Of a DNA stretch of 64,000 nucleotides, positions 3,611 to 62,646 are shown in pieces. Position 1 is the first letter of the stretch; every line of letters starts with the position of its first letter. Where the stretch lies: IMG/VR virus record IMGVR_UViG_3300045988_135886. One strand, 5' to 3'. The notes below the pieces were generated by a model, which saw nothing but the letters and a program-made list of their open reading frames with translations, ran no database searches and was not told the DNA's origin. Source of the stretch: a virus. Made by a program: the position numbers and the translations under genes.

Positions 3611-4681
3611 ATGGCAAAATTACAGTTCGCTACACTTTCTAATCTTCAGGAGTTTTTAAATCTGCATAACGTACAGATCGACTCTAAAATCAGTGAGGCT
3701 GTCAAAAACTCAATTAAAACAGTATCTCAGTCAGAAGACGGATACACACTTTATTTCTACACAAAAACTGCTCCAGTAACTATTGATGAAGCAGCATTTA
3801 CTATTACTATTCCTCAGCCAACAGGAAAAGCTGACAAAGTAAAAGGTGCAGTAAAAGGTCATCTTGCAGGATTAGATGAAAATGGTAATCTGGTAGATTC
3901 TGGAAAGACTGTTGCAGATTTCGATGCTGCTGGCGCTGCTAACACAGCAAAAACAGAAGTAATGTCTTATGTTGGTACCATTCCTGCTGATGCAAAAGCT
4001 AAAAATGTAGTTGCTTATATCAAAGAAGCTGTTACTACTGGTCAGTATGATGATTCTGCATTAAAAGCAAGCGTTGCAGCTAATACAGCAGCTATTGGAA
4101 CACTGAATGGCACTGGTGACGGATCAGTAAAGAAAGCTGTTGCAGATGCAGTCGCTAAAATCGTCGCAGATGCTCCAGAAGCATATGATACACTGAAAGA
4201 GATTTCTGATTGGATTTCTACACATACATCTGATGCTGCTACAATGAATTCTCAGATCAAAACAAATAAAGAGGATATCACAAAGCTGAAGACTCTTATC
4301 GGTACTCTTCCAGAATCTGCTACATCTAAAGATATCGTAGGTTATATTGCAGAATACGTATCTAAAGCTCTTGCTGATTCTGATCTTTCTAAGTATGCAA
4401 AAGCTGCTGATCTTGAAGCTGCTGTAGGCAGAATTGATGCTATCGAAAAGAAATTACCTACATTAGAGGCTGCTGATAAAAAGAATGCCGAAGATATTAC
4501 TGCTGTTAAAGGTAGAATGGATACAGCGGAAGGCAAAATTACTGCTGTAGAAAAAGATCTTGCTACTGAAAAACCGAAGATTGCTAAAAACACATCTGAT
4601 ATTGCCGCTCTTAAGGGACTTGTTGGAGATGGATATGAAGCAATTCCAAGTGCGTCTATCAAAGGTTTATTTAGTGCGTAA
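3611..4681 (+). CDS. Ala/Lys/Asp-rich fibrous (coiled-coil-like) virion protein
   Basis: AAGGAGG SD. Long low-complexity helical segments such as 'AADLEAAVGRIDAIEKKLPTLEAADKKNAEDITAVKGRMDTAEGKITAVEKDLATEK'. Confidence 0.45.
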   Translation: MAKLQFATLSNLQEFLNLHNVQIDSKISEAVKNSIKTVSQSEDGYTLYFYTKTAPVTIDEAAFTITIPQPTGKADKVKGAVKGHLAGLDENGNLVDSGKTVADFDAAGAANTAKTEVMSYVGTIPADAKAKNVVAYIKEAVTTGQYDDSALKASVAANTAAIGTLNGTGDGSVKKAVADAVAKIVADAPEAYDTLKEISDWISTHTSDAATMNSQIKTNKEDITKLKTLIGTLPESATSKDIVGYIAEYVSKALADSDLSKYAKAADLEAAVGRIDAIEKKLPTLEAADKKNAEDITAVKGRMDTAEGKITAVEKDLATEKPKIAKNTSDIAALKGLVGDGYEAIPSASIKGLFSA

Positions 4682-6858: not shown

Positions 6859-8274
6859 ATGGGAGAACAAAATCTCAATATACGAATCAAACATAAATAT
6901 GATACGGAAGCTAATTGGAATAAAAATAATCCTGTTCTTTTAAGTGGAGAAATAGCAATTACAAGTGATAAATTCGGTAAACATAAAGTGGGAGATGGAA
7001 CACATAAATGGTCTGAACTATCTTATGCAAAAGCTGAACTTACAAAAGGCGATGTAACAGGCGCTCTTGGCTATACGCCTCCTTCAAGTGACACTTGGCG
7101 AGGTATTCAGGATAATCTAATAAGCAGCTCTACAACTGAGTCTCTATCTGCTGCACAGGGTAAAATATTAAAAGAGTTAGTTGACGGGAAAGCTCCGTCT
7201 TCACATACGCATACTAAAAGCGAAGTCGGATTAGGCAACGTTGACAATACTGCTGATGCCACAAAAAGTGTTAAATATGCTATTTCTGCAGGTAGCGCAT
7301 CATCTGCCGCTGCTCTTACTTCTAATGCTGGATCATCAACTCAGCCAGTATATTTCTCAGGTGGTAAACCAGTAGCTTGTTCATATACACTTGGTAAGTC
7401 AGTGCCTGCAGATGCATTATTTACCGATCATACTTATGGAAACATGAAGGGTGCTACTTCTTCTTCTGCCGGAAGTGCTGGTCTTGTTCCTGCACCTAAT
7501 ATAGGAGAACAATTAAAGTTTCTTCGTGCAGATGGTGCATGGGTAATCCCTACAAATACGACATATTCTGTAGGTACATCAAGTTACTTAGGAATAACTA
7601 AGCTTTATACTGAAACTGGGTCGGCTACAGATGGTACCATGACTCAAAATGCTATTACTTCTGCTCTTAACGGGAAATCTCCTACCTCTCATACGCACAA
7701 TTATGCAGGAAGTTCTTCTGCTGGCGGTGCTGCTACATCAGCAATTAAATTATCCACACCTAGAAAAATTGGTAACGCATCTTTTGATGGTACTGCTGAT
7801 ATTACCTTATCTCAGATGGGACTTAATGTTCCTGTTGAAATTACAAAAGCTAACTATCTTGCAAAAAAGAAAGCTGGAACTTTAAATGCAAATACCTATT
7901 ACAATGTTATTGATGAATATGATTCTGCAAATGTTATTAACGACTCATCTGTAACAGCCAACAGTGCGTTTTCAAGTACTAAATCAGAAAAAACATATGC
8001 GAAGAAAAGTACACTTGTTAATACTACTCTCACAGCAAGTAAATGGACTGGATCTTCTGCTCCATATAGTTATGTATTATCCGTATCTGGAGTAACTTCT
8101 TCAAATATTGTAGAAATAGATTATGCTTCTAATGCTTCATCTGCTGCTATTGAAGCTTATCAAAATGCAATGTTAGCTGACGGAGGACAGACTACAAATC
8201 AAATTACTATAAAAGCAACCGAGAAACCAACTGTAGATATTCCCATTACTATTGTTATAAGAAATGATTTATAA
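6859..8274 (+). CDS. Tail fibre protein (paralogous N-terminus)
   Basis: 'LNIRIKHKYDTEANWNKNNPVLLSGEIAI..GDGTHKWSELSYA' parallels the N-terminus of the 4996 gene. Fibre-type motifs include 'SHTHTKSEVGLGNVDNTADATK', 'SHTHNYAG' and 'KLSTPRKIGNASFDGTADIT'. Confidence 0.65.
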   Translation: MGEQNLNIRIKHKYDTEANWNKNNPVLLSGEIAITSDKFGKHKVGDGTHKWSELSYAKAELTKGDVTGALGYTPPSSDTWRGIQDNLISSSTTESLSAAQGKILKELVDGKAPSSHTHTKSEVGLGNVDNTADATKSVKYAISAGSASSAAALTSNAGSSTQPVYFSGGKPVACSYTLGKSVPADALFTDHTYGNMKGATSSSAGSAGLVPAPNIGEQLKFLRADGAWVIPTNTTYSVGTSSYLGITKLYTETGSATDGTMTQNAITSALNGKSPTSHTHNYAGSSSAGGAATSAIKLSTPRKIGNASFDGTADITLSQMGLNVPVEITKANYLAKKKAGTLNANTYYNVIDEYDSANVINDSSVTANSAFSSTKSEKTYAKKSTLVNTTLTASKWTGSSAPYSYVLSVSGVTSSNIVEIDYASNASSAAIEAYQNAMLADGGQTTNQITIKATEKPTVDIPITIVIRNDL

Positions 8275-31367: not shown

Positions 31368-33935
31368 TTATCCTTCACCAACTTTCTTTCTATCTGTTTG
31401 AGCCAATATTGTTCCATCATTGTAAATTTCCTCAATTCTATTAGTTGTATGAGTATAAACAGTGTCTGCATATTTCGTGACAACAAATTGATCCTCACGC
31501 CTATAACCACAAACAATGATTTTAGAACCTCTTTTAAACCAAGACTCTTCCAGAACTTTTTTCTTGCCTGCAGGTGTCTGCTCAGAAATTCTTTTATTAT
31601 AATAACTATACTGACCTTTGTTATATTTACAGGTCACTACACCATGATTAGTGAGTAAAGTTACCAAATGTTTGTTGTTATCAGAATCTAAAACAGTTCC
31701 AGCTAATCGAACAATCTGGAATTTAGGAGTATGCTTAATTTCTCCTCGTATTCTTCTCGTAATATATTGATATACGAGAGGAGTTTCAGAGAGTGAATTA
31801 TAATCAACTACTCCATATTTTGGCTCATTCAAATTCCACAACTCATGTCGATCCGGGTAATAGCTTAATGATTCCATATCCCATTGTTCTAATGATCCAG
31901 ATGCATAAGATTCCATTGTTGAGTCAAGTTTTTTCTGGTTATATAATTGAAGTGTCTCAGGTAAAGCCATATAATCTTTCAATGGTTGGATAAGAGCGTC
32001 CCATTCTTTATTAAAGAGCTTCTCTGAAATAATTACTCCATCCTCCTTTGTACCCACAATACATGTATTAAAGTGCTCCATCAAAAATTCTGTACCTCTT
32101 TCATCAAGAGCAAAATATCTGTCATGATATCCTTTTTTAGGTACCTTTTTTTCTTCGTCTATTATGTTTTTCAAGAAGAAACTCTCATGTAAAGCATACG
32201 CTTTGAAATTCTTGATTCTAATCATTGTTTCCATCTCTTTTGGAAAGATGTCATATTCCAACGCTGAGTTAAACTGTTGCATAGTCAGCTTATCTGTAGG
32301 CGTAAATACATTACGAGAAAGAAACTTTTTCATTGTTTCCATGCGATCTGGAGAATCAAGTTCATTGAAACAACCAGCTTTAATTAGAATAATCATTTTA
32401 GCAGTACCAATAATCTTAGTGTCTACCATACGTTTACAGAAATCTTCAAATGAACTATAAGGCTGGTGCTCTACAATGGCACGAGCTATATCATCACCTA
32501 TTCCACAAAGTCCTTTAAAAGAGAAAATAATACGATTGTTCTTTTCATCTGGGACAAAAGAAAACTTTGCTTCATTGATAAGAGGTCTGTCTACTATGAT
32601 TGAACGCTGCTTAAAATTGGCTATTGCTGAAGCTATCTTTCCATACTTAGTCGATTTATTATCTTCTATCTCTTCATTAGCACCAGCATCAACAATAAGG
32701 TTAGCTGCATTCCAATAAATCAATGGATAATGATAAGCTAAATTCATTTCTTGTACTGCAATAGTTGAATAAGCAACGATATGAGGGAGACTAAAACTAT
32801 ATCCAAGCTGTTTTCTTATAACTTCGTTCCATACATAATCAAGCATATTAATTCGTGTACCTATCTCTAATCCATGCTTATAAAATTTATCATGTGCTTC
32901 TTTCTGTAGTTTTTTCTTTTTCTTTGCGATACTTTTACGTAAGTAGTTAGCTTCAGTCATAGTAAAATCTGATATATGTTTATCCATAGATAGTTGCATT
33001 ACTTCTTCCTGCATTGTTGCCATACCATGAACAGATTTCAAATATTTTTCTATAATTCCTATTTCGCTATCATTTAACTGATATTTTTGCTTCATACATT
33101 TGTACCATTCATTGATATTGTTTTTATACCTAACAAAGGTATCAATTGGCTGTTCTTCATCTTCTCCCTGTACCATAAGACGCATAGCAGCATTAGCAGT
33201 ACCCAGTTCAGTTAAAGATCTAGGTTTAATTGTTTGGATAGCTTTAGCTCCTACCTGAGTCTGAAACTGGAATAAGTTTACAATTTCAAGATTCTCTGCC
33301 ATCTTCCACATCTCTTCTGAATCATAATCTAATACATCAGGATGAAGATATTTATTATAGGTATCTCTTAAAGTACCTTGCCATTCAATATATCCATATT
33401 TGGCTAAAAAGTCTAAACATAAATGCATGGCATCTAAGTTTTGAATAGTTAAGTAATCAAATTTAAGTCCACCACAATAAGATGAATTATCCATATCCCA
33501 TTGTGTAACAGGCTGTCCATTTGGGGCCTTCATCATTGCATTGTGTTCTAAGTAAGGAGCATCAAATATGATTACTCCACTGGCATGTATTGATCTGCCA
33601 CAAACTAGGCCCTCTATTGCCATAGCAGTATCCAATAAGCCAGGATATTTCTTACATTCATTTAAAAATTCTGTTGCAGGTTTCACATTATCTTCTTCGT
33701 TACCATATTTCATTTCAGTCAAAGAAGCTGTTTTTCCTCTGGTAACCGGAATCATTCCAGCTAAATATTGTGCTATGTCATTATCTATCCTCATTCCTCT
33801 AGCAGTAGTAAGAATTGCCGATTTACTTCCTTCTGTCTTAAATGTACAAATGTTAAGTACTTTATCATATCCATATCTTTTTCTTGTTGCTTCTATAATC
33901 CTTTGCCTTTTTGAGGCTTCTGTATCAATATCTAC
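31368..33935 (-). CDS. dnaE: DNA polymerase III alpha subunit (DnaE-type), exon 2
   Basis: The frame is open from 33935 ('VDIDTEASKRQRIIEATRKRYGYDKVLNICTFKTEGSKSAIL...'), 47 codons upstream of the track Met. This continues the 'PD(F/I)D(I/V)D' motif begun in exon 1. A stop codon lies 4 codons upstream of the junction. Confidence 0.75.
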   Translation of the reverse strand, partial: VDIDTEASKRQRIIEATRKRYGYDKVLNICTFKTEGSKSAILTTARGMRIDNDIAQYLAGMIPVTRGKTASLTEMKYGNEEDNVKPATEFLNECKKYPGLLDTAMAIEGLVCGRSIHASGVIIFDAPYLEHNAMMKAPNGQPVTQWDMDNSSYCGGLKFDYLTIQNLDAMHLCLDFLAKYGYIEWQGTLRDTYNKYLHPDVLDYDSEEMWKMAENLEIVNLFQFQTQVGAKAIQTIKPRSLTELGTANAAMRLMVQGEDEEQPIDTFVRYKNNINEWYKCMKQKYQLNDSEIGIIEKYLKSVHGMATMQEEVMQLSMDKHISDFTMTEANYLRKSIAKKKKKLQKEAHDKFYKHGLEIGTRINMLDYVWNEVIRKQLGYSFSLPHIVAYSTIAVQEMNLAYHYPLIYWNAANLIVDAGANEEIEDNKSTKYGKIASAIANFKQRSIIVDRPLINEAKFSFVPDEKNNRIIFSFKGLCGIGDDIARAIVEHQPYSSFEDFCKRMVDTKIIGTAKMIILIKAGCFNELDSPDRMETMKKFLSRNVFTPTDKLTMQQFNSALEYDIFPKEMETMIRIKNFKAYALHESFFLKNIIDEEKKVPKKGYHDRYFALDERGTEFLMEHFNTCIVGTKEDGVIISEKLFNKEWDALIQPLKDYMALPETLQLYNQKKLDSTMESYASGSLEQWDMESLSYYPDRHELWNLNEPKYGVVDYNSLSETPLVYQYITRRIRGEIKHTPKFQIVRLAGTVLDSDNNKHLVTLLTNHGVVTCKYNKGQYSYYNKRISEQTPAGKKKVLEESWFKRGSKIIVCGYRREDQFVVTKYADTVYTHTTNRIEEIYNDGTILAQTDRKKVGEG

Positions 33936-35187
33936 CGAGATACTTTATGTTTCCATAAAGACTAGACTATATTTTCACCTTCGTCTTTAGCGGTCAGGTG
34001 TTTCATCTTTCAAGTGGTAGCAATCTCCACCTTACTCTCCTTTGAGATAGTCGTTACACATACATCTTGTATAGCACGGTATTACCACAGCTATCTTACG
34101 AAAGACCTTCAGGTTCTCTTAGTCAGCTTATTCGCCTTTGGACAAATGGCTTATAATTGTCATATAAGCAGTCTTAGTTCACTGATACCGTTAGCAGCTT
34201 TCGCTACACCTCTTTGCAATCAGAGTTTATGAAACTTAACACCAAATATTTCTATTCAGCTCGACCCGTTTTAAAATACTCATTTACTATTAATCTATAC
34301 TTCTGATATTTTCTATCCATATAAGTTGTAGCATGTCCATAGAGCCTATAGCACATTTCAATTGTTTGCATTGAACCGCCAATATTAAGTGCATAAATAT
34401 TGTCGTTTCTGTCCCTATATCTTTTGTCTAATTCTAATTTACTTTTTCCAAGATAGTTTTTTAGTCCGGTTAAAAATTCTTTTGTGCCAGTAAAACCAAT
34501 ATAAGCATTAATGACCTTATCATTTTTTATATCAACCGTTATACTTCCATCCCCGTCTAAATATCCACGTATAAAATCATACTTATATTGTTTTGGTACA
34601 ATAGAATCGTCTGGGAAAACAAGTTGTTTGGTCTTTTGCTCAATGCAGCCTTTTTCGATAAGTTGTTGGGCCATATGTTCACTCGCAATCAATACTCTTC
34701 CATAAACAGTATTTTCTTTATAAGAACTATTGGTGGTATATATTTTTATAGGTCCGGTAAAATTAATATCTTCTGTAAAAGCTTCTAATCGTTCCATATC
34801 TTTAATGCTTAAAGCAAGTCCCACTTTTCTGCTGTTGTGTTTTCTTTTGGATACTATATAGCCGTCTGCATATAAGAATCCCAACCAATAAGCTTTATGC
34901 TCGGAATCTATTACATCAAAATAATGTTCATTAGCACTATATTTTAAAGCTTGTTCCCTATCTGTTCTTATGTGTATATTATTTTCTTTTAATTTTTTAG
35001 ACACTGAACCCGGAGAAGTTTTAATTTCTTTTGCTATATTTGCTATTGATTTTTTATTATTGACATATTGTTCAACAATATAATTTATGCACTCTTGAGT
35101 CCATAATATTTTATTGTTAATACGCTCAACCTCCATCTAGCACTCCCTCCTTTCTTTAGATTTTTATGAGTATTTTAAATAAATTGA
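33936..35187 (-). mobile_element. Group-I-like self-splicing intron carrying a homing endonuclease ORF
   Basis: Exon 1 ends in ..GAU (U before the 5' splice site). The intron's last base is G. The 3' part contains S-like 'AAAATATAGTCT' and R-like 'GTGAACTAAGACTG' elements that can pair (AGACT/AGTCT, P7) and a GAAA-capped hairpin (AGC-GAAA-GCT). Confidence 0.65.
34252..35136 (-). CDS. LAGLIDADG homing endonuclease (double-motif) with N-terminal HTH
   Basis: 'YWLGFLYADGYI' and 'FIRGYLDGDGSI' motifs, plus an N-terminal 'SIANIAKEIKTSPGSVSKKLKEN' HTH. It lies entirely inside the dnaE interruption. Confidence 0.8.
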   Translation of the reverse strand: MEVERINNKILWTQECINYIVEQYVNNKKSIANIAKEIKTSPGSVSKKLKENNIHIRTDREQALKYSANEHYFDVIDSEHKAYWLGFLYADGYIVSKRKHNSRKVGLALSIKDMERLEAFTEDINFTGPIKIYTTNSSYKENTVYGRVLIASEHMAQQLIEKGCIEQKTKQLVFPDDSIVPKQYKYDFIRGYLDGDGSITVDIKNDKVINAYIGFTGTKEFLTGLKNYLGKSKLELDKRYRDRNDNIYALNIGGSMQTIEMCYRLYGHATTYMDRKYQKYRLIVNEYFKTGRAE

Positions 35188-36549
35188 ATCTGGCATCTCT
35201 GGTCTACTGGCATGTAAATGCCTCCACCAAGGGATGTTATATTTTAAAGGATTAATTTGTTGCAAATTTATAAGATATGATATATAAAAAGAAGCAATAG
35301 ATCCTCGTGATGGACCAACTAAAGATCCCCCACCATCTTCTGAGTCATCCCACATCATATTGATAATATCCAATGCTGTAATATAATAAGAAGAAACTCT
35401 ATCATTTAATTTTTCACTGGTTTCCCAAATGGCTCCCAACTCATCATTAATTCTTAACATCATTGATTTTATTTCTTCTTTTGTAAGTGACTCCGAATAT
35501 TGCTTTGTCCACCATCCATCTTCGATAAGATATAATAAATATCTGTCACTCTTTTCCTTTGAGTAGGCAAAATTCTTAATATAAGGACAAAAGTCATAAG
35601 CTGTTTCAAAAGAATGACTCATTGTAAATTCTGGTATTTTAGCTTTAGGTACAATTTGTGTATGATACAAGTCATACTCTTCAACCTTCTCACCAATCTC
35701 CAGAGAACACTTCAATGCATCTTCCACTTCTTCATACCCAAGATAATCCATCCTCTGATGAATTTGCTCATTGGTCATCATCCAAGTTGATTCATAGAAA
35801 TCACCTAACTCTCTTTCTTCATCATCGCGACTGTTAAGATAAGCAGCATGAATTTCTCTATCCTCTTGTTTCAAATAGTGAACATCACAGGCAATAGTAG
35901 CTTTTATTCCTAATTGATGCTTTAATTTTACAATCTCTCGATTCAACTTTATCTGTTCTTCTGACAGCCCCGGTTGCATTTCTAAATAGAAATCTTTACC
36001 AAATAACTGCTGGTTCCAGAGGAGAAAATCCATATAATTTTCTCCTGCCAATAGAGACTTGCCTAATTCTCCTCCTAAACATGCTGTCGTTGAAATCAGA
36101 TGTCCAGGATTAGATTTAACCACATGTTCCAGATCACTTTTCAATGTAGGAACACGTTCCATCCTTCCTGTATAAAAACTGTTATCCCATGCTAATGAAC
36201 TAAGTTCTCTTAACTGCTTATGCCCTATTTCATCTTTAGCCAGAAGAATATAATGATAAAATGGAGAATCACAAGACTTCTTTCCATCTTCTGATATATT
36301 TAATTTGTCAACTAAATATATTTCATTACCAAGTATTCCTTTGAAATCTTCCGGCAGTTCACCGGAAGACTTCATGGATTTAATTGTTTGAATAAATCTC
36401 ACATGACCAGATACAGACTCATGGTCAGTGATAGCAACTCCTGAAAGTCCAAGAGATGCAGCTTGTTTTATTAATTGAGGTACTTTTACGATGCAGTCCA
36501 ACATACGAAGCTGACTAAATTCTGTATGCGCATGTGTCTCTATTCTCAC
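35188..36549 (-). CDS. dnaE: DNA polymerase III alpha subunit (DnaE-type), exon 1 (PHP domain and start of the polymerase core)
   Basis: PHP motifs 'HAHTEFSQL..D' and 'GVAITDHESVSGH'. The exon ends '...WWRHLHASRPEMPD'. The track ORF then runs 7 more codons into the intron before a stop. Confidence 0.75.
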
Positions 36550-38691: not shown

Positions 38692-40308
38692 CTAAAAATC
38701 AAATGGCATTGATCCCAATAAAGTACTCGTAGCTTCTTGTTGCTCATCATCAGTAATCTGGATATCATCAAGGCTCTCAGAATGTTCCTCAATTACTTTC
38801 TCAATTTGAGCTACAGCCACTTCAGTTTCGATCAGGTTATAATAGTTGTCTGTAATAAATAAATCTTTAGTTCTACCAGTAGAGAGATCAGCATATTGCC
38901 ATAAACGGATTTTTGTCAGTTTTCCTCTTCGTACTTTATATATGTGTCTTACAAGATTGGGTATTGGCACTCCATACATATTGTGCATAAGTTTCTTTAC
39001 ACACTCTAACTCTGCACTTGTTGGCCTCAGTGAAATTTCACCTAAGTCAATTCTATCTGCTAGAGATTTTGCACCTCTTAACATTGTTTCGTCTTTAATC
39101 TGACTATCTTTGTATGTACCATTTAACTGAGTCATTGTTAGAATAAAGATATCCAATTTCATAGCCAAATTCTTAAGAGTGTCCATGAATAAGAACAAAG
39201 TCTGATCTTCTCTCAATTTCATTCCTTTACTCATAGAAGCAACTTCAGCAATTAATTTAGCTGACATATGTATATAATCGAATACGAAATAATGACATCC
39301 TTTTTCTCTCTTATAAGTTTTAATGATATTTGATATATCTTCTATACCAAAATCATTAATAATTTCTATATATAAAGGATAAGTAGCAATATATTCAATA
39401 GCTTTATCTACTCGTTCTTCCTCATCTCCTTCATAGTCTCCATCAAGAATCTTGTTCTCTGGTACTCCGGAAACGTATGCCATAATGATAGTCTGTACTT
39501 CGTCTTCCTCTAACTCAGTAGAGATGAATAGAGATGGTTCCTCACACCCAGTGTAAATCCATTCTTTTTTATCTGTATCATAGAAATAAGGGATTGAAAT
39601 ATTACAGATATCTGCCAATGCAGTCCTTGTCTTTCCTCCACCAGAATCAGCAGAACGAAGATAGACCTTTTTAAGTCTCGCCCCTCTAGCAATAGTAGTC
39701 ATCATAGGGCTCTGTAAAGGTATTCCAAACTCTGGTTCTTCTTTCAATCTTTCTTTCAGTTCTTTCATCCCCTTACCGGCAAGCTGACCCTTTCTCGAAG
39801 AATCCATTCCATAGAGCATTTTTGCTTTCGTAATGAGCAGATCCTCTTCTTCCAGAATCATATCATTTATTGAAGTTGCATCTAATTTAGCTGCTTGCTG
39901 TTCTTGTCTGCTAGGATCAATGATTGTTTGATCATAGATGTTCCTTATGTCTACTCCACATGAATCCCAATATCTTAAAAGACTAAATTTCTTCAAGCGT
40001 TCCAGGTAGTAACTAAAATTTTCCAATTCAGCCAAACGAATGGCATCGTCACAATAATCAATTCCTTGATTATCGTTGAAAATTTTATATTGTTTCTCAT
40101 ATCTTGAAAGAAAACTATCTATAGCAAATGTATCTATAATCTCTACCCCTTGGTTGTAGAGATTATACACACATGAAAATAATATTGCGTAAAATTGTTC
40201 TTCTTCAAAGTCATACTGTGTAAGTGTGTATTCTTCCAAAAGGGAAGGTTTCTTCATAATACATCCTAAACATTGAAGAGTGGCGTGTTTGTCAATTAAC
40301 ATATTCAC
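38692..40308 (-). CDS. dnaB: DnaB-like replicative helicase
   Basis: An N-terminal DnaB-type helical domain ('LQCLGCIMKKPSLL') and a RecA-like core with 'RSADSGGGKTRTAL' (Walker A). Confidence 0.7.
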   Translation of the reverse strand: MNMLIDKHATLQCLGCIMKKPSLLEEYTLTQYDFEEEQFYAILFSCVYNLYNQGVEIIDTFAIDSFLSRYEKQYKIFNDNQGIDYCDDAIRLAELENFSYYLERLKKFSLLRYWDSCGVDIRNIYDQTIIDPSRQEQQAAKLDATSINDMILEEEDLLITKAKMLYGMDSSRKGQLAGKGMKELKERLKEEPEFGIPLQSPMMTTIARGARLKKVYLRSADSGGGKTRTALADICNISIPYFYDTDKKEWIYTGCEEPSLFISTELEEDEVQTIIMAYVSGVPENKILDGDYEGDEEERVDKAIEYIATYPLYIEIINDFGIEDISNIIKTYKREKGCHYFVFDYIHMSAKLIAEVASMSKGMKLREDQTLFLFMDTLKNLAMKLDIFILTMTQLNGTYKDSQIKDETMLRGAKSLADRIDLGEISLRPTSAELECVKKLMHNMYGVPIPNLVRHIYKVRRGKLTKIRLWQYADLSTGRTKDLFITDNYYNLIETEVAVAQIEKVIEEHSESLDDIQITDDEQQEATSTLLGSMPFDF

Positions 40309-43110: not shown

Positions 43111-43881
43111 TCATGCCTCCTCTTCAAAGATGCTTCCGCTAATGCCTAAGGCTTCAGCAAGTAGTGTTTTCAGAGGCTCTGATGGATTCTGATCATTCAA
43201 CCATCCTAAATAACTATCTGGAATTTCAGAGAGTGGTTCTCCCTTATGTTTGCCGAATGGCATAAGATATGTTTCTGGTGTAGGTTTGAATTCTTTCATC
43301 AGTTCATCTACTTCAGTTTCATCAAAAGATACTGTTAAATCTTTTCTTGATGCTAAATAATCTGCTAAGTGAACTATCATCTGACCTTTTGTTTCTGGTA
43401 ATGGCAGCTCATCTTTACTTCTTTTATCTGTGTTCCATTCACCCATATGTGAGGCGCAACAGTTTGCAATATAATCCAATTCTTCATCTGGCAACCATTC
43501 AAATCCTTTATAGGATTTTATTCTCTCAGCTATAAGTAACGGGTGTTTAAAAAGAGTATATTGACTGCCATTACGCCCAAGTTTTTCATCATCATGGTTC
43601 ATAATAGCTGTTCGTAGCATATCTCTTTCTCTTGATGTAAACTGACTCTTGATACAATCAATTGACAGCATATGGTTTAAGAATCTAGTTGCCCCTTTTA
43701 CATGTTTAGCAAGTCCCATAAAACCAACTGTATAATCAGGGTGATACTTGTTAGTACTTGAAGCAGACACTTGCCAGAAATATGTAGGCGCAGTATCTAG
43801 TAATTCAATACAAAATTCCTGAATATCATCATTTTCAAATACTTCTAATTCTTCCTTAAAAAATCTCTCTGCTAATGTCAT
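43111..43881 (-). CDS. HD-domain phosphohydrolase with a C-terminal DUF3820-like motif
   Basis: 'KYHPDY' ... 'IMNHDDEK' (H..HD..D pattern). The C-terminal 'MPFGKHKGEPLSEIPDSYLGWL' resembles the DUF3820 signature. Confidence 0.55.
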   Translation of the reverse strand: MTLAERFFKEELEVFENDDIQEFCIELLDTAPTYFWQVSASSTNKYHPDYTVGFMGLAKHVKGATRFLNHMLSIDCIKSQFTSRERDMLRTAIMNHDDEKLGRNGSQYTLFKHPLLIAERIKSYKGFEWLPDEELDYIANCCASHMGEWNTDKRSKDELPLPETKGQMIVHLADYLASRKDLTVSFDETEVDELMKEFKPTPETYLMPFGKHKGEPLSEIPDSYLGWLNDQNPSEPLKTLLAEALGISGSIFEEEA

Positions 43882-45167
43882 ACAGTTTCCTCCTCAATAA
43901 TTTCTTGTGCCTCTTCCATATCCGGTGTATCAGAGGAATCTTTTATCAATCCTTCAAGGACCTTGAAAGTGAAATTCTTGTGCTTATAAGCCTTAAAGCT
44001 ACTTCTATTATCAATTCTTACAACTACACCTTCTCTAACATGTGTCACCCCTATTGGATCAGGCCCATCATAATATTTTTCCACACGCTCCATAAGATCT
44101 TCTTTAGTAGTAAACAGGAATTTATCAAATTCAGGTACATGTTTAACTCCTAAACGATCACACCAATTCTTTACTTCTTCCCATGGAATCTCTGTAATAA
44201 CTCCATCTTCATTGGTCATAGTCATTCTATAAACATAAATATCAGAAGTACCAGGAGTACACCCATAAGAGAACACTGTTTCATCACCGTAAAGCTTCTT
44301 AACTTCTTTATCTTTAATTTTAGCGTTGGAACAGGTTCCCATAATGGTCTGCTCTGTACCATCAACCCATCCTACAATTTCATAAAATACTTCCATTCCT
44401 TTTGGCAGTCTGTCAATAAAGTAGTCATGATATTTCTGTCTAAATTTATCATTCCCATAGTAACCGCCTTCAAATACAACTCTTCTTGTTCCAGTAACTA
44501 TTTTCCATTCTTTGATAACAGGAGCCGGTCTACAAAAAAGTTTCTGTAGTAGAGTCTTTTTCTTAGTAGTTACTTCTATTGCATTTGCTGTTCGACCAGA
44601 TGTGCCATGCATTTTCAAAGTAATGTAACAAGTATCTCCTGGTTTAAAGGCATTTAAGTTATATGCTAACTGTTCTGTATCAGCATGTTCTTTAAAATAA
44701 GGAAATTTGTTTTTTAAATTTGGAGTTTTTACTTTCGGACCATTGTTAGATTTTTTATGATTTGATCTTGGAATATATTTTTTACAGATAACTGTCCCAT
44801 TAAGTACAGTAATTTGATCTCCTAAAGATAACTTATTTATATCAGTCCATTTGCTAAGAGATTCTACTGGTAAAACCAATCCTTCTGATTTTTCACCTCG
44901 CAGTCTCATAGCTTTAATGTTTCGTTTTACAGGATCAAGATATCCACCTGTAGTTGTTCCATCTTCATTTTTAATACGCAGCAAATTGTTTTCTTTTGCA
45001 AATTCTTCTCCTAGCTGACCATCAACCGGGAAAAATACAACTTTCTGCCCTTCGTAATAACTTAAATCAACAATAACCGTATTTCCAAAAACGGTACCAA
45101 GCTGGAGCCTATCAGCATTGCTGTGTTTACGAAGTTGCTTAAGCTCAGTAATGTAAGCACAATACAT
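43878..45167 (-). CDS. ATP-dependent RNA ligase-like nucleotidyltransferase with an N-terminal OB/tRNA-binding-like domain
   Basis: 'KHSNADRLQLGTVFGNTVIV' (tRNA_bind-like) and 'ITLKMHGTSGR' (lysine nucleotidyltransferase motif I, K-x-(D/H)-G). Confidence 0.5.
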   Translation of the reverse strand: MYCAYITELKQLRKHSNADRLQLGTVFGNTVIVDLSYYEGQKVVFFPVDGQLGEEFAKENNLLRIKNEDGTTTGGYLDPVKRNIKAMRLRGEKSEGLVLPVESLSKWTDINKLSLGDQITVLNGTVICKKYIPRSNHKKSNNGPKVKTPNLKNKFPYFKEHADTEQLAYNLNAFKPGDTCYITLKMHGTSGRTANAIEVTTKKKTLLQKLFCRPAPVIKEWKIVTGTRRVVFEGGYYGNDKFRQKYHDYFIDRLPKGMEVFYEIVGWVDGTEQTIMGTCSNAKIKDKEVKKLYGDETVFSYGCTPGTSDIYVYRMTMTNEDGVITEIPWEEVKNWCDRLGVKHVPEFDKFLFTTKEDLMERVEKYYDGPDPIGVTHVREGVVVRIDNRSSFKAYKHKNFTFKVLEGLIKDSSDTPDMEEAQEIIEEETV

Positions 45168-53500: not shown

Positions 53501-56122
53501 TTAGTTACTTCCTTTCTTACAAATTGCTTTTCTAATCCAATCTACAGGCACAACCATAAATGCTGTCACTAAGACTACAATCCACTGTTTAGCATCCATT
53601 GGAGTTGTCTGTACTAGATTTCCTACAAAGTTACACAAAACTACAGTCATTGCAAAAATACCCAATGCGATATACACAAATAATTTGTTATTTTTAATTC
53701 CTTTGAAAAGATTCATACTATCTGTTCTAATAGTGAATCCATTAAATACTGCCATTAGACACAATAAAGCGAATCTCGCTGTCATAGCCGAAAGTTTTGT
53801 TGTAAACATATTTCCAACTGGACCAAATGTAATTACACCAAATAAAGCAATAAATACAATTGAACTTAATGCAATTCTCCCTTTCGCTCCACGGATAAAT
53901 AATCCGGATCCTTTCATGATAGGCTCTTCATTCATATATTCCTCTTTTGGCGGTTCTCCACCAAAGCTTAATGAGTTAAGTGAATCCATGATGATATTTA
54001 CAATAAGGATCTGAACTGCTGCTAATAGAGCAGAGCCACCAGAAATAATTGGAAATACCATACTTAAGATCAACAACGAAATATTGATAGGTAGCTGGAA
54101 TTCAAGGAACATCATAATGTTATGCATAAATGTTCTACCAAGTTCGACTGCCTTTACCACACTTGCAAAATTATTGTCTGTCAAAACAATATCTGCTGCT
54201 TCTTTTGCTACATCAGATCCGTCTTGCATTCCAAAGCCTACATCTGCTTTCTTTAGTGCAGGAGCATCGTTCACACCGTCTCCGGTCATTGCCACAGACA
54301 TTCCAATTTCTTGCGCTAATGTTACAAGACGAAGCTTCGTATTCGGTGAGCATCTGGAAATTACTCTTAACTGTGGAATAATTTCTTTTACTTTTACATC
54401 TGACATTGCCTCAAACTCATCATTGGTAACTGCTAAGTCTCCAGGCTTATAAATGCCAGCTTCCATAGCAACAGCCTTAGCAGTCTCCATACAGTCACCA
54501 GTAATTTCAATTACCTGAATTCCAGCTTTATGAGCAATTTTTACTGCTTCTGGAACTTCATTCCTAACCGGGTCAACAACTCCAATGACTCCAAGGAGAT
54601 TCATTTCATCGGGGAGACCATCATCAGTTTTATCTGAGATAGTCAATGCAATACATCTCATTGCCTTCTCTGTCAATCCCTTAATATGGCTCTTTAAAGC
54701 TTTTCTTTTTTCTTCTGTCAGCTCAGTTGCAATGCCATCATTATCAAGATAAAATTTACACTTCTCAATTAATTTCTCTGGTGCGCCTTTATAAACAGTA
54801 AAATCATTTGCTCCATTATTTAAAGTAACTGCAGAGAATTTATTTTCACTACTAAATGGAACACGTTTTTTCATGATAGCTTTATTCTGTATTTTTTGTG
54901 CATCTTCAGGAGAAAGCATATCAAGCACTGCTCGATCAATTGAATTGCCACCAGTGATATTCCCATTAGAATCAAACACTGCACTATTATTCATACAAAT
55001 GTTTAAATCAATTAGCTCGTTGAGCGGACTTTCCTTATTAAAAATATCCTGACAGTTACCGTTAATCATAACTGTAGAAGTCATTTCACCTGTTGTGAGA
55101 GTTCCTGTCTTATCCGTACAAATTAAATTAACATATGCCAATTCAGGAATTTTACCAGTATTCTTCGCAAGAATATTGAATTTTTCCATTGTCGATACAT
55201 TCTGTTTAGTTACAAGTTTTACAATGAGTGGCAGACCTTCCGGTACAGCCGCAACAATAATTGTTAATGCATTTGAGATATTCTGTGCTACTTTCTGAAT
55301 ATTTTCAAGAATGTTTCCTGAGAAATACTGACTTAAACTTCCAGCATTTAAGATACCTGTAATTGTCATAATTACAAATGCTAATACTGCCGCAATTGTT
55401 CCCCATTTTGAAATAAAATCACACAAATGATCCAGAGCAATATCAAGAGCTGTCTTAGGAGGCTCTAAAGTCTGCATTTTGACAAGAGTATCACCGTTAA
55501 CTGTATTAACACCAACATCTGTAACAATCATTTTTCCTTCACCAGACATAATAACTGTTCCTGCAAAGAGCGAACACTGATCCGTATATGCAGCAGTAGA
55601 TGTTGTTTTAACATGCTTATAATTAGCACTAGGAATTTTTCTACATTCTTTTGTCTCTCCATTGATAGCGGCATTATTAACAGAAATTTCTCCTTCAACA
55701 ATAAAACCATCTGCAAAAATCTCTTGTCCAGTTCTCAATAAAACTAAATCACCTACTACCAGATCATCTTTATTAATTGTCTGTACGCTTCCATCTCGAA
55801 CAACATCACAATATCTAACTGCCGTTTTTGCTCTTAACTCTGCTGCAGATTTCTGTATTCCTAGACCTGTCTTAACAGCAATTTCAGTAACAATAGCTAA
55901 AACTACTATAATCATTACAGGTTCAGAAAGAGCCATTACTCCCATAGCTCCTAGAACTAACTGGAATAAAGCAATTATTATTAGAATCATAGTAATTGGC
56001 TCAGTTAATGCTTCCTTAGCAAAATGATACCATTTTTTCAATTCAGGTTCCGGAAGCTTATTACTTCCATATGTAGTCCTACTAACCCCTACTTCGCTAC
56101 TTTTTAATCCATTAAAATTCAT
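53501..56122 (-). CDS. P-type cation-transporting ATPase (type IIA, Ca2+-ATPase-like)
   Basis: 'ICTDKTGTLT' (phosphorylation site), 'PEGLPLIV' (the TM4 motif of Ca2+ pumps), 'TGDGVNDAPALKKADVG', and an N-terminal cation-ATPase-N-like segment. Confidence 0.8.
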   Translation of the reverse strand: MNFNGLKSSEVGVSRTTYGSNKLPEPELKKWYHFAKEALTEPITMILIIIALFQLVLGAMGVMALSEPVMIIVVLAIVTEIAVKTGLGIQKSAAELRAKTAVRYCDVVRDGSVQTINKDDLVVGDLVLLRTGQEIFADGFIVEGEISVNNAAINGETKECRKIPSANYKHVKTTSTAAYTDQCSLFAGTVIMSGEGKMIVTDVGVNTVNGDTLVKMQTLEPPKTALDIALDHLCDFISKWGTIAAVLAFVIMTITGILNAGSLSQYFSGNILENIQKVAQNISNALTIIVAAVPEGLPLIVKLVTKQNVSTMEKFNILAKNTGKIPELAYVNLICTDKTGTLTTGEMTSTVMINGNCQDIFNKESPLNELIDLNICMNNSAVFDSNGNITGGNSIDRAVLDMLSPEDAQKIQNKAIMKKRVPFSSENKFSAVTLNNGANDFTVYKGAPEKLIEKCKFYLDNDGIATELTEEKRKALKSHIKGLTEKAMRCIALTISDKTDDGLPDEMNLLGVIGVVDPVRNEVPEAVKIAHKAGIQVIEITGDCMETAKAVAMEAGIYKPGDLAVTNDEFEAMSDVKVKEIIPQLRVISRCSPNTKLRLVTLAQEIGMSVAMTGDGVNDAPALKKADVGFGMQDGSDVAKEAADIVLTDNNFASVVKAVELGRTFMHNIMMFLEFQLPINISLLILSMVFPIISGGSALLAAVQILIVNIIMDSLNSLSFGGEPPKEEYMNEEPIMKGSGLFIRGAKGRIALSSIVFIALFGVITFGPVGNMFTTKLSAMTARFALLCLMAVFNGFTIRTDSMNLFKGIKNNKLFVYIALGIFAMTVVLCNFVGNLVQTTPMDAKQWIVVLVTAFMVVPVDWIRKAICKKGSN

Positions 56123-60704: not shown

Positions 60705-61178
60705 CTACTCCATAAATGATGAAACATGTACGGTTACAAAATCACTATGTGCACGAATATAATCCAAAGTTTTAACTGTATCTTCTACAATTGCAATCTG
60801 AGATGGCTTAAGTCCGAGCTTTTGTTGCAGCGTTTGAAGCACAGTAAGTTTTTCTGTCTTTTCTAAAGTGAAATAGATATTATCATCTGGCAGATCATAA
60901 TTGTCTTTTATAAAAGCTCTTTTACCAGGAATTTCATTTAAAGGACTCTTTGAACAGGTATATACTTTATTCACGCCTTTATTCTGAATAAACTCCTGCA
61001 TTAATTTGATCGGACGCACATCTTTATACGGATTCTCACCGGAAGCTACAAGTCTGTCCCATTCATCGTCAGTCATACTATGACTTAATTCAGAAAACTC
61101 ATACGGAGCAAGTACTCCATCTACATCCATTACTACAATCACATCATCTTTTAATAAATAATCTGTAATTTTACTCAT
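60705..61178 (-). CDS. HAD-superfamily phosphatase / 5'(3')-nucleotidase-like
   Basis: The 'VVMDVDGVLA' DxDG motif I at the N-terminus. The size (157 aa) fits a small cap-less HAD or NT5C-like enzyme. Confidence 0.5.
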   Translation of the reverse strand: MSKITDYLLKDDVIVVMDVDGVLAPYEFSELSHSMTDDEWDRLVASGENPYKDVRPIKLMQEFIQNKGVNKVYTCSKSPLNEIPGKRAFIKDNYDLPDDNIYFTLEKTEKLTVLQTLQQKLGLKPSQIAIVEDTVKTLDYIRAHSDFVTVHVSSFME

Positions 61179-62646
61179 CTTTGTTTCTTCCGTTTAATCT
61201 GTCTCTGATTTCTTTAAATATTTCTGTATGATATATTTCACCGTCTTTAAATACAGTTTTTAATGCCCCATCATAAACAAAGCTGTCATATCCATCTCTG
61301 CACCTTAATTCTCCATTTTCATCGTAATATACATGACAACATCCTTTATGAGATTTCTTTAAATGGCTTACATCTGTCTTTGGATCTTTGTAAATCATAA
61401 TCGGTTGTCCGTTAACTTCTCCAAATGTAGCTTTCATAGCAATGCCGAACATATCTCTGGTTACAACGACCATACGTCCATCAGGTTCTACAACTGCCGA
61501 GAAACAAAAAGCCCCAACTCCAAATACAATGTTGTTTGCAGCGAATCCTTTCTTCTCAAGTTCTTCCCATACCTTTTTTACATTGTTAAGAGTACAGCCA
61601 TCACCATAGATAATTCCAATATGAGGGTCCAGTACTTTGTAACCTTTGCTATTTACTGATCCTTTAAATGTATTCCAGAGTTTTTCGATAGTCTTAACTG
61701 AAATCTCTACCATATCACCAGAATCCGGACGAACCAAGAGCTTACCATTGTGCTGCATAATTTCTTTTTTGCAAGCTGGAAGAATATTGTCAATCATGTT
61801 CCAGTAATCATATGTATCAGATACCATGCTGAAAGATGCATTCGGATATAATTCTGTAAGTAGTCTTTTCACAAATGTAATTTCGTCTCCGTCCACAGCA
61901 TAATTTGAAGCCATGACCGCATGTTCGGTAGAAATCGCACCAATTCCAATATGACTCACGCTACAGTCATTGAAATAATATTTGTCCAAATAATCAATTG
62001 CCGGGATCGTACTTGTCTTATCAAAGGATAATAGCCAAGCAACGGAGCATCTCTCTGCTTCTTCCATACAGGACATTCCACGCATTCCAAAGTCTGAGCA
62101 GGCCATTTCAGGTCTTAAAATGTCGTCGCAGGTCTTTTTATAGTAGAAATTTGCCAGTTCTCTGTACATATGTCCAATTGTTGCATGAGCACACGGCTTC
62201 CAAAGCTCAACCTGCAGAATACACTCAATCCACTGCACAACCCATGCAAAATCTGGATGTGTATTCGTGATTTCAATGCATGGCACTCCCATAGGCACTA
62301 ATGTACCTTCCGGCAATGCACGGATCTGAATCGGAAGATACCCTAATTCGTGAAGTTTAAGGATTGGAGAAATATCGTAATTTCCTTCTCCTAACTGAAT
62401 GTCCATACTAATTGTATAAAGTTCTTGAACTTCATCAGTGCTTAATTTAAAGAAATCTCTTTTAAAATATGTAATAAGATATTCTTTAATAAAAGCCTGC
62501 AGTCCGAAGAAAACCATATGATCCTGCTCCTTTAACATTGATCTTCTCGGAGTCCAATAAGAGACTAACTTCGTCAATCCTCTCGGAAACATATTGTGGT
62601 GTACTTGTTTGTAAGTATCGCTTAACAGAATTGCTAAGGTATCCAT
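61171..62646 (-). CDS. Nicotinamide phosphoribosyltransferase family protein (NAMPT/NadV-like; could be a NARP1 Namat)
   Basis: The size (491 aa) and 'LLSDTYKQVHHNMFP', 'FGMRGMS', 'SDTYDYW', 'VRPDSGD' and 'IIYGDG' follow the NAMPT pattern. Confidence 0.7.
   Translation of the reverse strand: MDTLAILLSDTYKQVHHNMFPRGLTKLVSYWTPRRSMLKEQDHMVFFGLQAFIKEYLITYFKRDFFKLSTDEVQELYTISMDIQLGEGNYDISPILKLHELGYLPIQIRALPEGTLVPMGVPCIEITNTHPDFAWVVQWIECILQVELWKPCAHATIGHMYRELANFYYKKTCDDILRPEMACSDFGMRGMSCMEEAERCSVAWLLSFDKTSTIPAIDYLDKYYFNDCSVSHIGIGAISTEHAVMASNYAVDGDEITFVKRLLTELYPNASFSMVSDTYDYWNMIDNILPACKKEIMQHNGKLLVRPDSGDMVEISVKTIEKLWNTFKGSVNSKGYKVLDPHIGIIYGDGCTLNNVKKVWEELEKKGFAANNIVFGVGAFCFSAVVEPDGRMVVVTRDMFGIAMKATFGEVNGQPIMIYKDPKTDVSHLKKSHKGCCHVYYDENGELRCRDGYDSFVYDGALKTVFKDGEIYHTEIFKEIRDRLNGRNKDE

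Follow-up and report, generated by a model that had tools for sequence, protein, structure and literature searches.

A probable mobile group I intron with a LAGLIDADG endonuclease gene in the DNA polymerase III alpha gene of an SPbeta-like gut phage

Introduction

Group I introns in phage DNA polymerase genes are described for SPO1 and SP82 (with the endonuclease I-HmuI), Bastille (I-BasI) and the cyanophage Pf-WMP3 (I-PfoP3I) (PMC3984707, PMC3428280). Here we analyze a locus of this kind in a 64,000-nucleotide (nt) stretch of viral DNA, IMG/VR record IMGVR_UViG_3300045988_135886 (hereafter, the window), in which a YorL-type gene for the alpha subunit of DNA polymerase III (Pol III alpha) is interrupted at its catalytic motif by an insert that contains an open reading frame (ORF) for a LAGLIDADG protein. 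We conclude that the insert is very likely a mobile group I intron, its core being of subgroup IA and like that of T4 td, in the polymerase gene of an SPbeta-like phage or prophage found widely in the human gut. The known cases resemble the window in that an intron of the self-splicing type, together with a homing endonuclease gene, occupies a conserved motif of a replicative polymerase, whereas they combine family A polymerases with HNH nicking enzymes and the window combines a family C polymerase with a LAGLIDADG enzyme.

A 2014 review names DNA polymerases, ribonucleotide reductases (RNRs) and terminases as the typical targets of phage introns, which mostly carry GIY-YIG, HNH, PD-(D/E)xK or EDxHD enzymes (PMC3984707). 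In SPbeta itself the RNR genes bnrdE and bnrdF contain introns and an intein (Lazarevic 1998, 2001, cited in PMC8270828). The window is of the same lineage, with the YorH/YorL replication module, and likewise has a selfish element in a gene of nucleotide metabolism or replication; however, the host gene differs, yorL being uninterrupted in SPbeta and the RNR gene being uninterrupted in the window. None of the literature that we searched, which was incomplete in its coverage, describes a group I intron in a Pol III alpha or YorL gene.

On the RNA side, the introns of T4 td, which we take to have the same core as the window intron, and of Twort orf142 (IA2, RF00028) share with it the segment AACGACUAUC at J6/7-P7, the P7' strand (G)AUAUAGUC, the P7.1 and P7.2 pairings, the P4 consensus UAA-CGG.../...CCGUGCUA, a P9 with a GAAA loop, the U.G pair at the 5' splice site, and the terminal G. 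The window intron differs from these relatives in its two extra hairpins, its 102-nt P5 extension, the position of its ORF (the loop of an extended P1, not P6a), its LAGLIDADG instead of GIY-YIG enzyme, its host gene (a polymerase, not thymidylate synthase), and its score of 30.6 bits. On the protein side, I-AniI, encoded in a group I intron of the mitochondrial cob gene of Aspergillus nidulans, also has two LAGLIDADG repeats in one chain; the window protein, in contrast, comes from a phage and not from an organelle, has an additional N-terminal module of ~65 residues, and is only 11–17% identical to I-AniI and the other monomeric enzymes. Pol III alpha genes are also known to be broken by another selfish genetic element, the split intein of cyanobacterial DnaE. 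That system relies on protein trans-splicing of separately translated halves and is located at a different site, whereas the halves in the window, which contain no intein sequence, would be joined at the RNA level.

Results

An exactly bounded insert one codon upstream of the catalytic aspartates

The polymerase gene, the insert and all intron features are on the minus strand, and coordinates are given as positions in the whole window (Table 1). When joined across the insert, the gene encodes an SPbeta-YorL-type Pol III alpha of 1309 amino acids (aa), interrupted after codon 454 (RPEMPD|VDIDTE). The N-terminal ORF, with its read-through (36549..35164), continues past RPEMPD for seven codons (SIYLKYS) and then stops. 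An open frame begins again with VDIDTEASKRQRIIEA at 33935 and ends at 31368, which rebuilds MPD|VDID and gives 855 aa, in agreement with the preliminary description of this DNA. The two parts meet without a residue lost or doubled in the Pfam DNA_pol3_alpha profile, of which exon 1 covers positions 10–103 and exon 2 positions 104–259, and all four family C polymerase domains (PHP, DNA_pol3_alpha, finger and HHH_6) are found across the two exons. The nearest known proteins are the uninterrupted YorL polymerases of Bacillus phage SPbeta and related phages, with 49% identity over the query. The D-x-D pair is formed by D456 and D458 of the ligated protein, within the PDVDID motif at residues 453–458. 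The catalytic motif had thus been correctly named as the site of the split, but the insertion point is one codon upstream of D456, the first aspartate of the pair, and not between the aspartates.

A search with the conceptually ligated protein identified an uninterrupted natural counterpart (P0001), a protein of 1309 aa with 98% identity that reads RPEMPDVDIDTEASKRQ. The contig encoding it, L011, has the same gene neighborhood, and its DNA is identical to the exon flanks of the window for 45 nt on each side of an empty-site junction reading GCCAGAT|GTAGATATT (wider intron-less site, GAGATGCCAGATGTAGATATTGATACA). The comparison with intron-less homologs that had been proposed earlier therefore places the junction exactly as in a natural uninterrupted allele. 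Because the bases beside each boundary differ, the insert cannot be slid and corresponds exactly to 35187..33936. A junction one base downstream (GAUU|...CGG|UAGAU, encoding Leu) was ruled out since the intron-less allele reads GAT|GTA, i.e., Val. The insert is preceded by a U and ends in a G, as noted previously, and all related copies likewise end in G (UCG| or CCG|).

Both allelic states occur in nature. A single protein cluster at ≥90% identity includes the split forms, of 461 aa on 280 contigs and of 808 aa on 147, together with unsplit polymerases of 1309 or 1310 aa on a few contigs each, so the presence or absence of the insert is a natural polymorphism. All ten further natural copies examined (nine assembly contigs and one IMG/VR viral contig) have the same intron with 0–2 differences. 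Exact matches to the protein encoded in the insert occur in 919 blocks of the assembly collection, mostly from human-gut metagenomes along with one isolate assembly, and always in the context of a split polymerase.

The polymerase could instead be made as separate polypeptides of 461 and ~808 aa that assemble without splicing, with a free-standing endonuclease gene between the two halves. Gene callers and GenBank do annotate such loci as two genes (e.g., dnaE_1 and dnaE_2 in Staphylococcus phage SPbeta-like), and cases of split or fractured replication genes that have an endonuclease gene between the parts are known (PMC2677866). However, exon 2 is preceded by an in-frame TAA four codons upstream and has no ATG, GTG or TTG start before Met48, so D456 and D458 could not be translated without RNA splicing, and VDID with its D-x-D pair is absent from both fragments. 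The halves of a split intein are likewise absent, as exon 1 runs on for only seven codons and exon 2 is not extended at its N-terminal end, and a covarying group I core in the 316 nt after the ORF would be left unexplained. We thus regard two separately made halves, the alternative that had been named as refuting an intron, as extremely unlikely.

The conserved 3' domain of the RNA core

A two-block motif, AACGACUAUC...AUAUAGUCUAGUC, is present in 86 viral contigs, and in at least 8 of the 20 contigs tested it lies inside matches to the Rfam group I intron model RF00028 of 62–115 bits. In these Rfam-recognized introns AACGACUAUC occupies the J6/7-P7 position. Three Rfam alignments provided a template with the order P2, P2.1, P3, UAA, P4-P5, P6, AACGACUA (J6/7-P7), P7.1, P7.2, P3', P8, GAUAUAGUC (P7') and a P9 with a GAAA loop. 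Folding of a MAFFT alignment of 56 introns and the window with RNAalifold recovered P7, P7.1, P7.2, P8 and P9; compensatory changes were detected in 16 of the 23 pairs of this 3' domain, and the window forms all of them. P7.1 and P7.2 between P7 and P3' are the extra pairings of subgroup IA in the classification of Michel and Westhof, and the window has both at the expected position (CUC/GAG and AGGUGG/CCACUU, respectively).

The preliminary description had proposed R and S elements able to form P7 and a hairpin with a GAAA tetraloop. The S element holds, as AUAUAGUC pairs with GACUAU, but the R element had been misassigned and is GUGUAACGACUAUC; the segment taken for it, GTGAACTAAGACTG (34182..34169), forms a local CAGU/ACUG hairpin inside the P5 extension. 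Three GAAA-capped hairpins are found in the insert, i.e., P2, hairpin B and P9.

Covariation in introns at the same site

Copies at the same site were detected in other Pol III alpha genes (L099, L120, L121, L122 and L036), and their endonuclease homologs are 86%, 70%, 60% and 59% identical to that of the window, plus 42% for L036. In the copies of L036 and L120–L122 the homologous LAGLIDADG genes occupy the same P1-loop position as in the window. P1 consists of GAU|UC with G(G/A)GUC in the same-site copies, and in five same-site copies the U.G wobble is invariant and the +1 pair changes from UG to UA. The P1-extension helix is 10–18 base pairs (bp) long in L120, L121, L122 and L036 and is entirely different in sequence in each lineage, with the strands AAAAUAUGCA/UGCAUAUUUU in L120, AAAAUAUCCUUU/GAAGGAUAUUUU in L121, GAUAUCCUUUUAAUAAUU/AAUUAUUAAAAGGAUAUU in L122 and UUACUUCUUUGUA/UACAAAGAAGUAA in L036. 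In the predicted structure the endonuclease ORF sits in the loop closed by this extended P1, and its last ~16 codons overlap the 3' strand of the extension, the guide sequence and P2.

An initial model of P1, a 10-bp duplex of exon GAUGCCAGAU with intron positions 941–950 (AUUUGGUGUU) and a U-A pair at the splice site, was rejected, as L121 and L122 cannot form it and the intron segment is the 3' strand of the covarying P2. The 3' strand of P2 (34238–34247) can nevertheless pair alternatively over 10 bp with the last bases of exon 1 (35188–35197) in the window, L099 and L120, though not in L121 or L122, which may represent a lineage-specific pairing or a coincidence.

Pairing was counted formally in an alignment of five same-site copies from which the ORF had been removed. 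Because one of the aligned sequences had served to derive the structure, the percentage paired is inflated (97.3% of cells, versus 36–43% with slid partners), but the count of pairs changed on both sides is not (19 of 75, versus 1–5 when slid). None of 500 shuffles reached the observed value on four of the five measures. Among the individual helices, three of the seven P2 pairs changed on both sides and five of the seven P3 pairs had compensatory changes.

Evidence that weighs against a group I intron

Several observations count against this assignment. The covariance-model check suggested in the preliminary description was only partly favorable, as a permissive local search of 1.8 kb matched RF00028 at 34194..33943(-) with 30.6 bits (E = 1.9e-5), which is below the curated gathering cut-off of 50 bits, and the alignment is good at the P7'/P9 end but poor in the middle. 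Rfam scans of the whole window, in both gathering and E-value modes, returned nothing; the filters are stricter on long input, so this blank is uninformative regarding other introns. The canonical IA order P2(-P2.1)-P3-J3/4-P4 is broken in the window and in at least 15 related introns. P4, P7 and P7.1 are invariant among the same-site copies, thus the support for these helices comes from the wider family comparison. The exon part of P1 is only 3 bp, and the folding z-score of the core is −1.95 (4 of 100 shuffled sequences fold equally well). Lastly, the window and L099 differ at 6 of 316 positions in the RNA core and at 130 of 888 in the ORF, a contrast that in itself favors a group I intron; however, the core may owe part of its low divergence to recombination or to co-conversion with the exon flanks, which are equally conserved, and not to selection on the RNA alone.

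The Rfam shortfall is attributable to the extra hairpins, the P5 extension and the misalignment of P3–P8 by the model. The same-site intron of L036, whose endonuclease is homologous to that of the window at E = 1e-60, scores 63 bits with RF00028 and is thus above the cut-off. Only 2 of the 16 introns tested that have the layout of the window pass, L036 and L089 (60.1 bits), and both have a compact P4-P5. The unconstrained minimum free energy fold of the window core finds P2, P3, both extra hairpins, P4, P6, P7.1 and P7.2.

The sub-threshold score, the modest z-score and the two non-canonical hairpins that separate P3 from P4 could also be read as signs of decay, in which case the insert would be a non-splicing remnant and the polymerase a pseudogene in a defective prophage. 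This is very unlikely given that the exons are open over 1309 codons and nearly identical to the uninterrupted allele, that the ten further copies are almost unchanged and the endonuclease protein recurs throughout the assembly collection, and that all core helices are intact and kept by compensatory changes. An intact group I intron is the reading that we retain.

Table 1 Features of the interrupted polymerase gene and of the proposed intron, in the order of transcription
Feature	Position in window	Strand	Remarks
Exon 1	35188..36549	−	454 codons; PHP and DNA_pol3_alpha positions to 103; ends RPEMPD (GAU)
Group I intron (very likely)	33936..35187	−	1252 nt; starts UCAAUUUA, ends GUAUCUCG; terminal (omega) G at 33936
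P1 5' strand	35186..35190	−	exon GAU and intron UC; splice-site U at 35188 in U.G wobble
P1-extension 5' strand UUUAAAAUACUCAU	35166..35179	−	14 bp with 34283..34270
Shine-Dalgarno sequence AAAGGAGGG for endonuclease ORF	35145..35153	−	read from the sequence
LAGLIDADG ORF	34252..35136	−	294 aa; Pfam, PHROG, AlphaFold2, Foldseek
P1-extension 3' strand AUGAGUAUUUUAAA	34270..34283	−	inside 3' end of endonuclease ORF
Internal guide sequence GGGUC (P1 3' strand)	34263..34267	−	pairs with GAU|UC
P2 hairpin CUGAAUA-GAAA-UAUUUGG	34242..34259	−	holds ORF stop UAG; 7 bp in all copies
P3 5' strand GUUUCAU	34229..34235	−	partner AUGAAAC at 34006..34000
Extra hairpin A CUCU-GAUUGCAA-AGAG	34210..34225	−	between P3 and P4
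Extra hairpin B GUAGC-GAAA-GCUGC	34194..34207	−	between P3 and P4; 3 of 5 pairs changed on both sides
P4 ACGGUAU/AUACCGU with enclosed 102-nt P5 extension	34076..34191	−	P4 covaries in class members
P6 hairpin AUAC-AAGAU-GUAU	34060..34072	−	length variable among copies
R element GUGUAACGACUAUC (J6/7 and P7 5' strand)	34046..34059	−	P7 strand GACUAU at 34052..34047
P7.1 hairpin CUC-AAAG-GAG	34037..34046	−	family alignment
P7.2 hairpin AGGUGG-AGAUUGCUA-CCACUU	34012..34032	−	strong covariation, 57 sequences
P3 3' strand AUGAAAC	34000..34006	−	complement of GUUUCAU
P8 hairpin ACCU...AGGU	33977..33999	−	family alignment
P7 3' strand AUAGUC in S element AAAAUAUAGUCUAGUC	33965..33970	−	pairs with GACUAU
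P9 hairpin CUUUAUG-GAAA-CAUAAAG	33943..33960	−	Rfam match and family alignment
Exon 2	31368..33935	−	855 codons from VDIDTE; remaining DNA_pol3_alpha, finger domain, HHH_6

A monomeric LAGLIDADG protein under purifying selection

The double-motif LAGLIDADG ORF reported earlier within the insert is borne out by profile, fold and family comparisons. Its two motifs are YWLGFLYADGYI and FIRGYLDGDGSI, and it matches Pfam PF14528 (LAGLIDADG_3) at 31.6 bits against a cut-off of 22.5 and PHROG 4645 ('endonuclease') at E = 6.6e-59. The first motif contains FLYADG (with D91) and the second YLDGDG; D91, G92, D194, G195 and G197 are invariant in 50 homologs, and D196 is present in the window. At least 1001 proteins belong to the family, most of them free-standing and ~280–300 aa long. 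By sequence, the best match in the PDB was I-Tsp061I at only E = 0.17, thus a comparison of folds was needed. The AlphaFold2 model (predicted local distance difference test 92.9, predicted template modelling score 0.77) consists of an N-terminal helical module of ~65 residues followed by two alpha-beta-beta-alpha-beta-beta-alpha repeats. Foldseek gave 75 matches in the PDB at E ≤ 0.001, and all 50 of those listed are monomeric LAGLIDADG enzymes with probability 1.00, the best being I-AniI (top), I-HjeMI, bI3 maturase, I-SmaMI and I-OnuI (template modelling scores of ~0.45–0.56). Compared with the 86%-identical copy in L099, the ratio of nonsynonymous to synonymous substitution rates (dN/dS) is 0.098, with a dS of 0.73. 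The ORF thus encodes a monomeric, double-motif LAGLIDADG enzyme that is under purifying selection.

The role of this protein is open to a second interpretation, in which the group I intron does not self-splice efficiently and needs the LAGLIDADG protein as a maturase, or a host chaperone, so that the protein might be mainly a splicing factor. The best fold matches include the bifunctional endonuclease and splicing factor I-AniI and the bI3 maturase, the strong purifying selection persists though the intron allele predominates in the sampled contigs and would fit a role beyond homing, and a short P1 with large peripheral additions on the core would fit assisted splicing. However, the likeness to I-AniI is one of shared fold and is no evidence of maturase activity. 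Both acidic residues that end the motif helices (D91 and D196) are kept, D91 invariantly, as expected for an active nuclease, and intron-less alleles still exist, which means that homing can still be selected; both points argue against a protein that acts mainly as a maturase. The phage group I introns studied so far (T4, SPO1 and Twort) generally self-splice in vitro, which also counts against maturase dependence. Overall, we consider this second interpretation unlikely, though it deserves to be kept in mind.

LAGLIDADG domains are also common in inteins, and the related polymerase P0113 carries an intein with such domains. However, the insert in the window is out of frame, with a stop seven codons past the junction, and its ORF has its own start and ribosome-binding site and no Hint or other intein domain in Pfam. 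A group II intron is similarly opposed by the absence of a reverse transcriptase and of any group II RNA match in Rfam. The probability that the element is either of these is negligible.

Inteins were observed at two related loci. The intein of P0113, a polymerase homolog of 1734 aa, is in the PHP domain. In a near-identical phage contig (L003, 1–2445) the DnaB-type helicase is 896 aa long, compared with 536–538 aa otherwise, and contains an intein with Hom_end and LAGLIDADG_3 domains; the DnaB-type helicase of the window (38692–40308, minus strand) has no intein.

A wider set of introns with two hairpins between P3 and P4

Searching each relative for a strand complementary to P3' gave the 5' strand of P3 and divided the family in two. 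In the canonical members P3 directly adjoins AAU/AAA-P4. The second set comprises L012, L022, L025, L035, L036, L065, L089, the Staphylococcus introns and the window, and has the order P3, (G)AA(C), hairpin A, G(G)UGU, hairpin B, (GC)UA, P4. Nine representatives have an identical order of elements, and P3, hairpins A and B, P4, P6–P9, P7.1 and P7.2 are complementary in them despite differing sequences. P3 differs in sequence in all nine, and P4 occurs as ACAGUAU/AUACUGU or ACAGG/CCUGU in other members of the class. A literature search on hairpins between P3 and P4 (P3.1/P3.2) found nothing relevant. These introns could represent a distinct and undescribed IA-type lineage, marked by the two hairpins that precede J3/4-P4 and by a long P1 extension around the ORF in the polymerase copies. 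Such a lineage would occupy three or more conserved sites in SPbeta-type Pol III alpha genes and, in phages of Firmicutes and of the gut, also a GyrB-type topoisomerase gene and apparent RNR and terminase genes; we put this forward tentatively, as a possibility that falls short of being probable.

The junctions that flank hairpins A and B (GUGAAC...GGUGU...GCUAAC) resemble the J6/7 element GUG(C/U)AAC. This likeness, seen in the window (34194–34225) and in L012, L022, L025, L035, L036, L065 and L089, hints at a partial duplication of P4-P6/J6/7.

Related introns at other sites

In Staphylococcus phage SPbeta-like (L001, KT429160.1), an intron of ~480 nt between dnaE_1 and dnaE_2 (~3920–4401) is of the same class and has an ORF of 32 codons. 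Its site, LP|DIDID, is one codon upstream of that in the window and is also occupied in L027, L057 and L068. The Staphylococcus introns have no full-length endonuclease gene, and the short ones of L057 and L068 (~300 nt) have no internal insertion. A block-anchored comparison was used between the window and the Staphylococcus intron, as the internal insertion puts the MAFFT alignment out of register.

A second polymerase site, KQLG|YSFS, is occupied in L125 (6486–7354) and also in L124 and L126 (GCA_003604395.1 QZLX01000544.1), from a gut-phage lineage whose uninterrupted polymerase is ~79% identical to that of the window. The intron has the same layout with a 214-aa NUMOD4-domain ORF in the P8 region, and Rfam detected nothing at this intron even at E ≤ 0.01. 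Two proteins, P0098 and P0107, were considered as exon-2 fragments of same-site introns and rejected, as they are N-terminal fragments that mark the second intron site.

An intron of the same class in L065 (~7100–7517) interrupts a GyrB/ParE-type topoisomerase gene at DAD|VDG, and its target, GAT|GTTGATGG, resembles the polymerase site GAT|GTAGATATTGAT.

Genomic setting

The neighboring genes in the window, i.e., those for AAA_24, YorH, a DnaB-type helicase, a PD-(D/E)XK nuclease, a RecD2-like helicase and an RNR, fit an SPbeta-like replication module. Megablast against GenBank phages found no near relative of the window, and a scan of species-representative genomes found only relatives at ~27% identity. 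The window also encodes an 873-aa P-type cation-transporting ATPase (53501–56122, minus strand; E1-E2 ATPase, Cation_ATPase_C and N domains), an unusual cargo for a phage in DNA that is otherwise phage-like, with NAMPT (61171–62646) and an RNA ligase (43878–45167) near it.

Discussion

The boundaries of the insert, its covarying core, the same-site intron that exceeds the Rfam cut-off and the fold of the encoded protein together support the earlier proposal of a group I-like intron with a LAGLIDADG endonuclease. We infer from these computed features that the RNA would splice, either alone or with the help of a protein, and that the protein would cleave the site. After transcription through the intron, GAU|UC (three exon and two intron bases) would pair with the guide GGGUC, and the 14-bp P1 extension would close a loop of ~880 nt that holds the endonuclease gene. 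The core from P3 to P9, with the P3/P7 pseudoknot, P7.1 and P7.2, would bind guanosine and direct cleavage after the wobble-paired U. Joining of the exons after the terminal G would restore MPD-VDID and the full-length polymerase, with the predicted RNA junction GCCAGAU-GUAGAUAUU. The LAGLIDADG protein, probably translated from its own ribosome-binding site, may cut intron-less alleles at or near GCCAGAT|GTAGATATT, and recombinational repair would then copy the intron in (homing); the natural presence/absence polymorphism with identical flanks and the purifying selection on the ORF lend such cleavage indirect support.

The arrangement is a standard one for phages, in which group I introns that encode homing endonucleases occupy conserved motifs of replication genes, and the element is a fairly ordinary selfish one; the understanding of group I introns or of homing is unchanged by it. 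Less usual are the two hairpins between P3 and P4 and the housing of the ORF in the loop of the P1 extension. The finding bears more directly on annotation. Gene callers and GenBank give two polymerase genes and a hypothetical protein at such loci, where the corrected model is one polymerase of 1309 aa and a homing endonuclease. The related introns also expose a blind spot, in that the standard Rfam model largely misses introns with two hairpins between P3 and P4. If the proposed lineage is real and occurs widely, the annotation of many a 'split' phage gene (dnaE_1/dnaE_2 in GenBank being one example) would be wrong and would conceal a single gene with an intron. The LAGLIDADG enzyme itself is a candidate for a new meganuclease, whose natural target would be the empty-site sequence given above. 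For phage biology, a family C polymerase is added to the genes colonized by group I introns, and one polymerase gene family is seen to be hit at several conserved motifs by related introns with different endonucleases, as well as by an intein.

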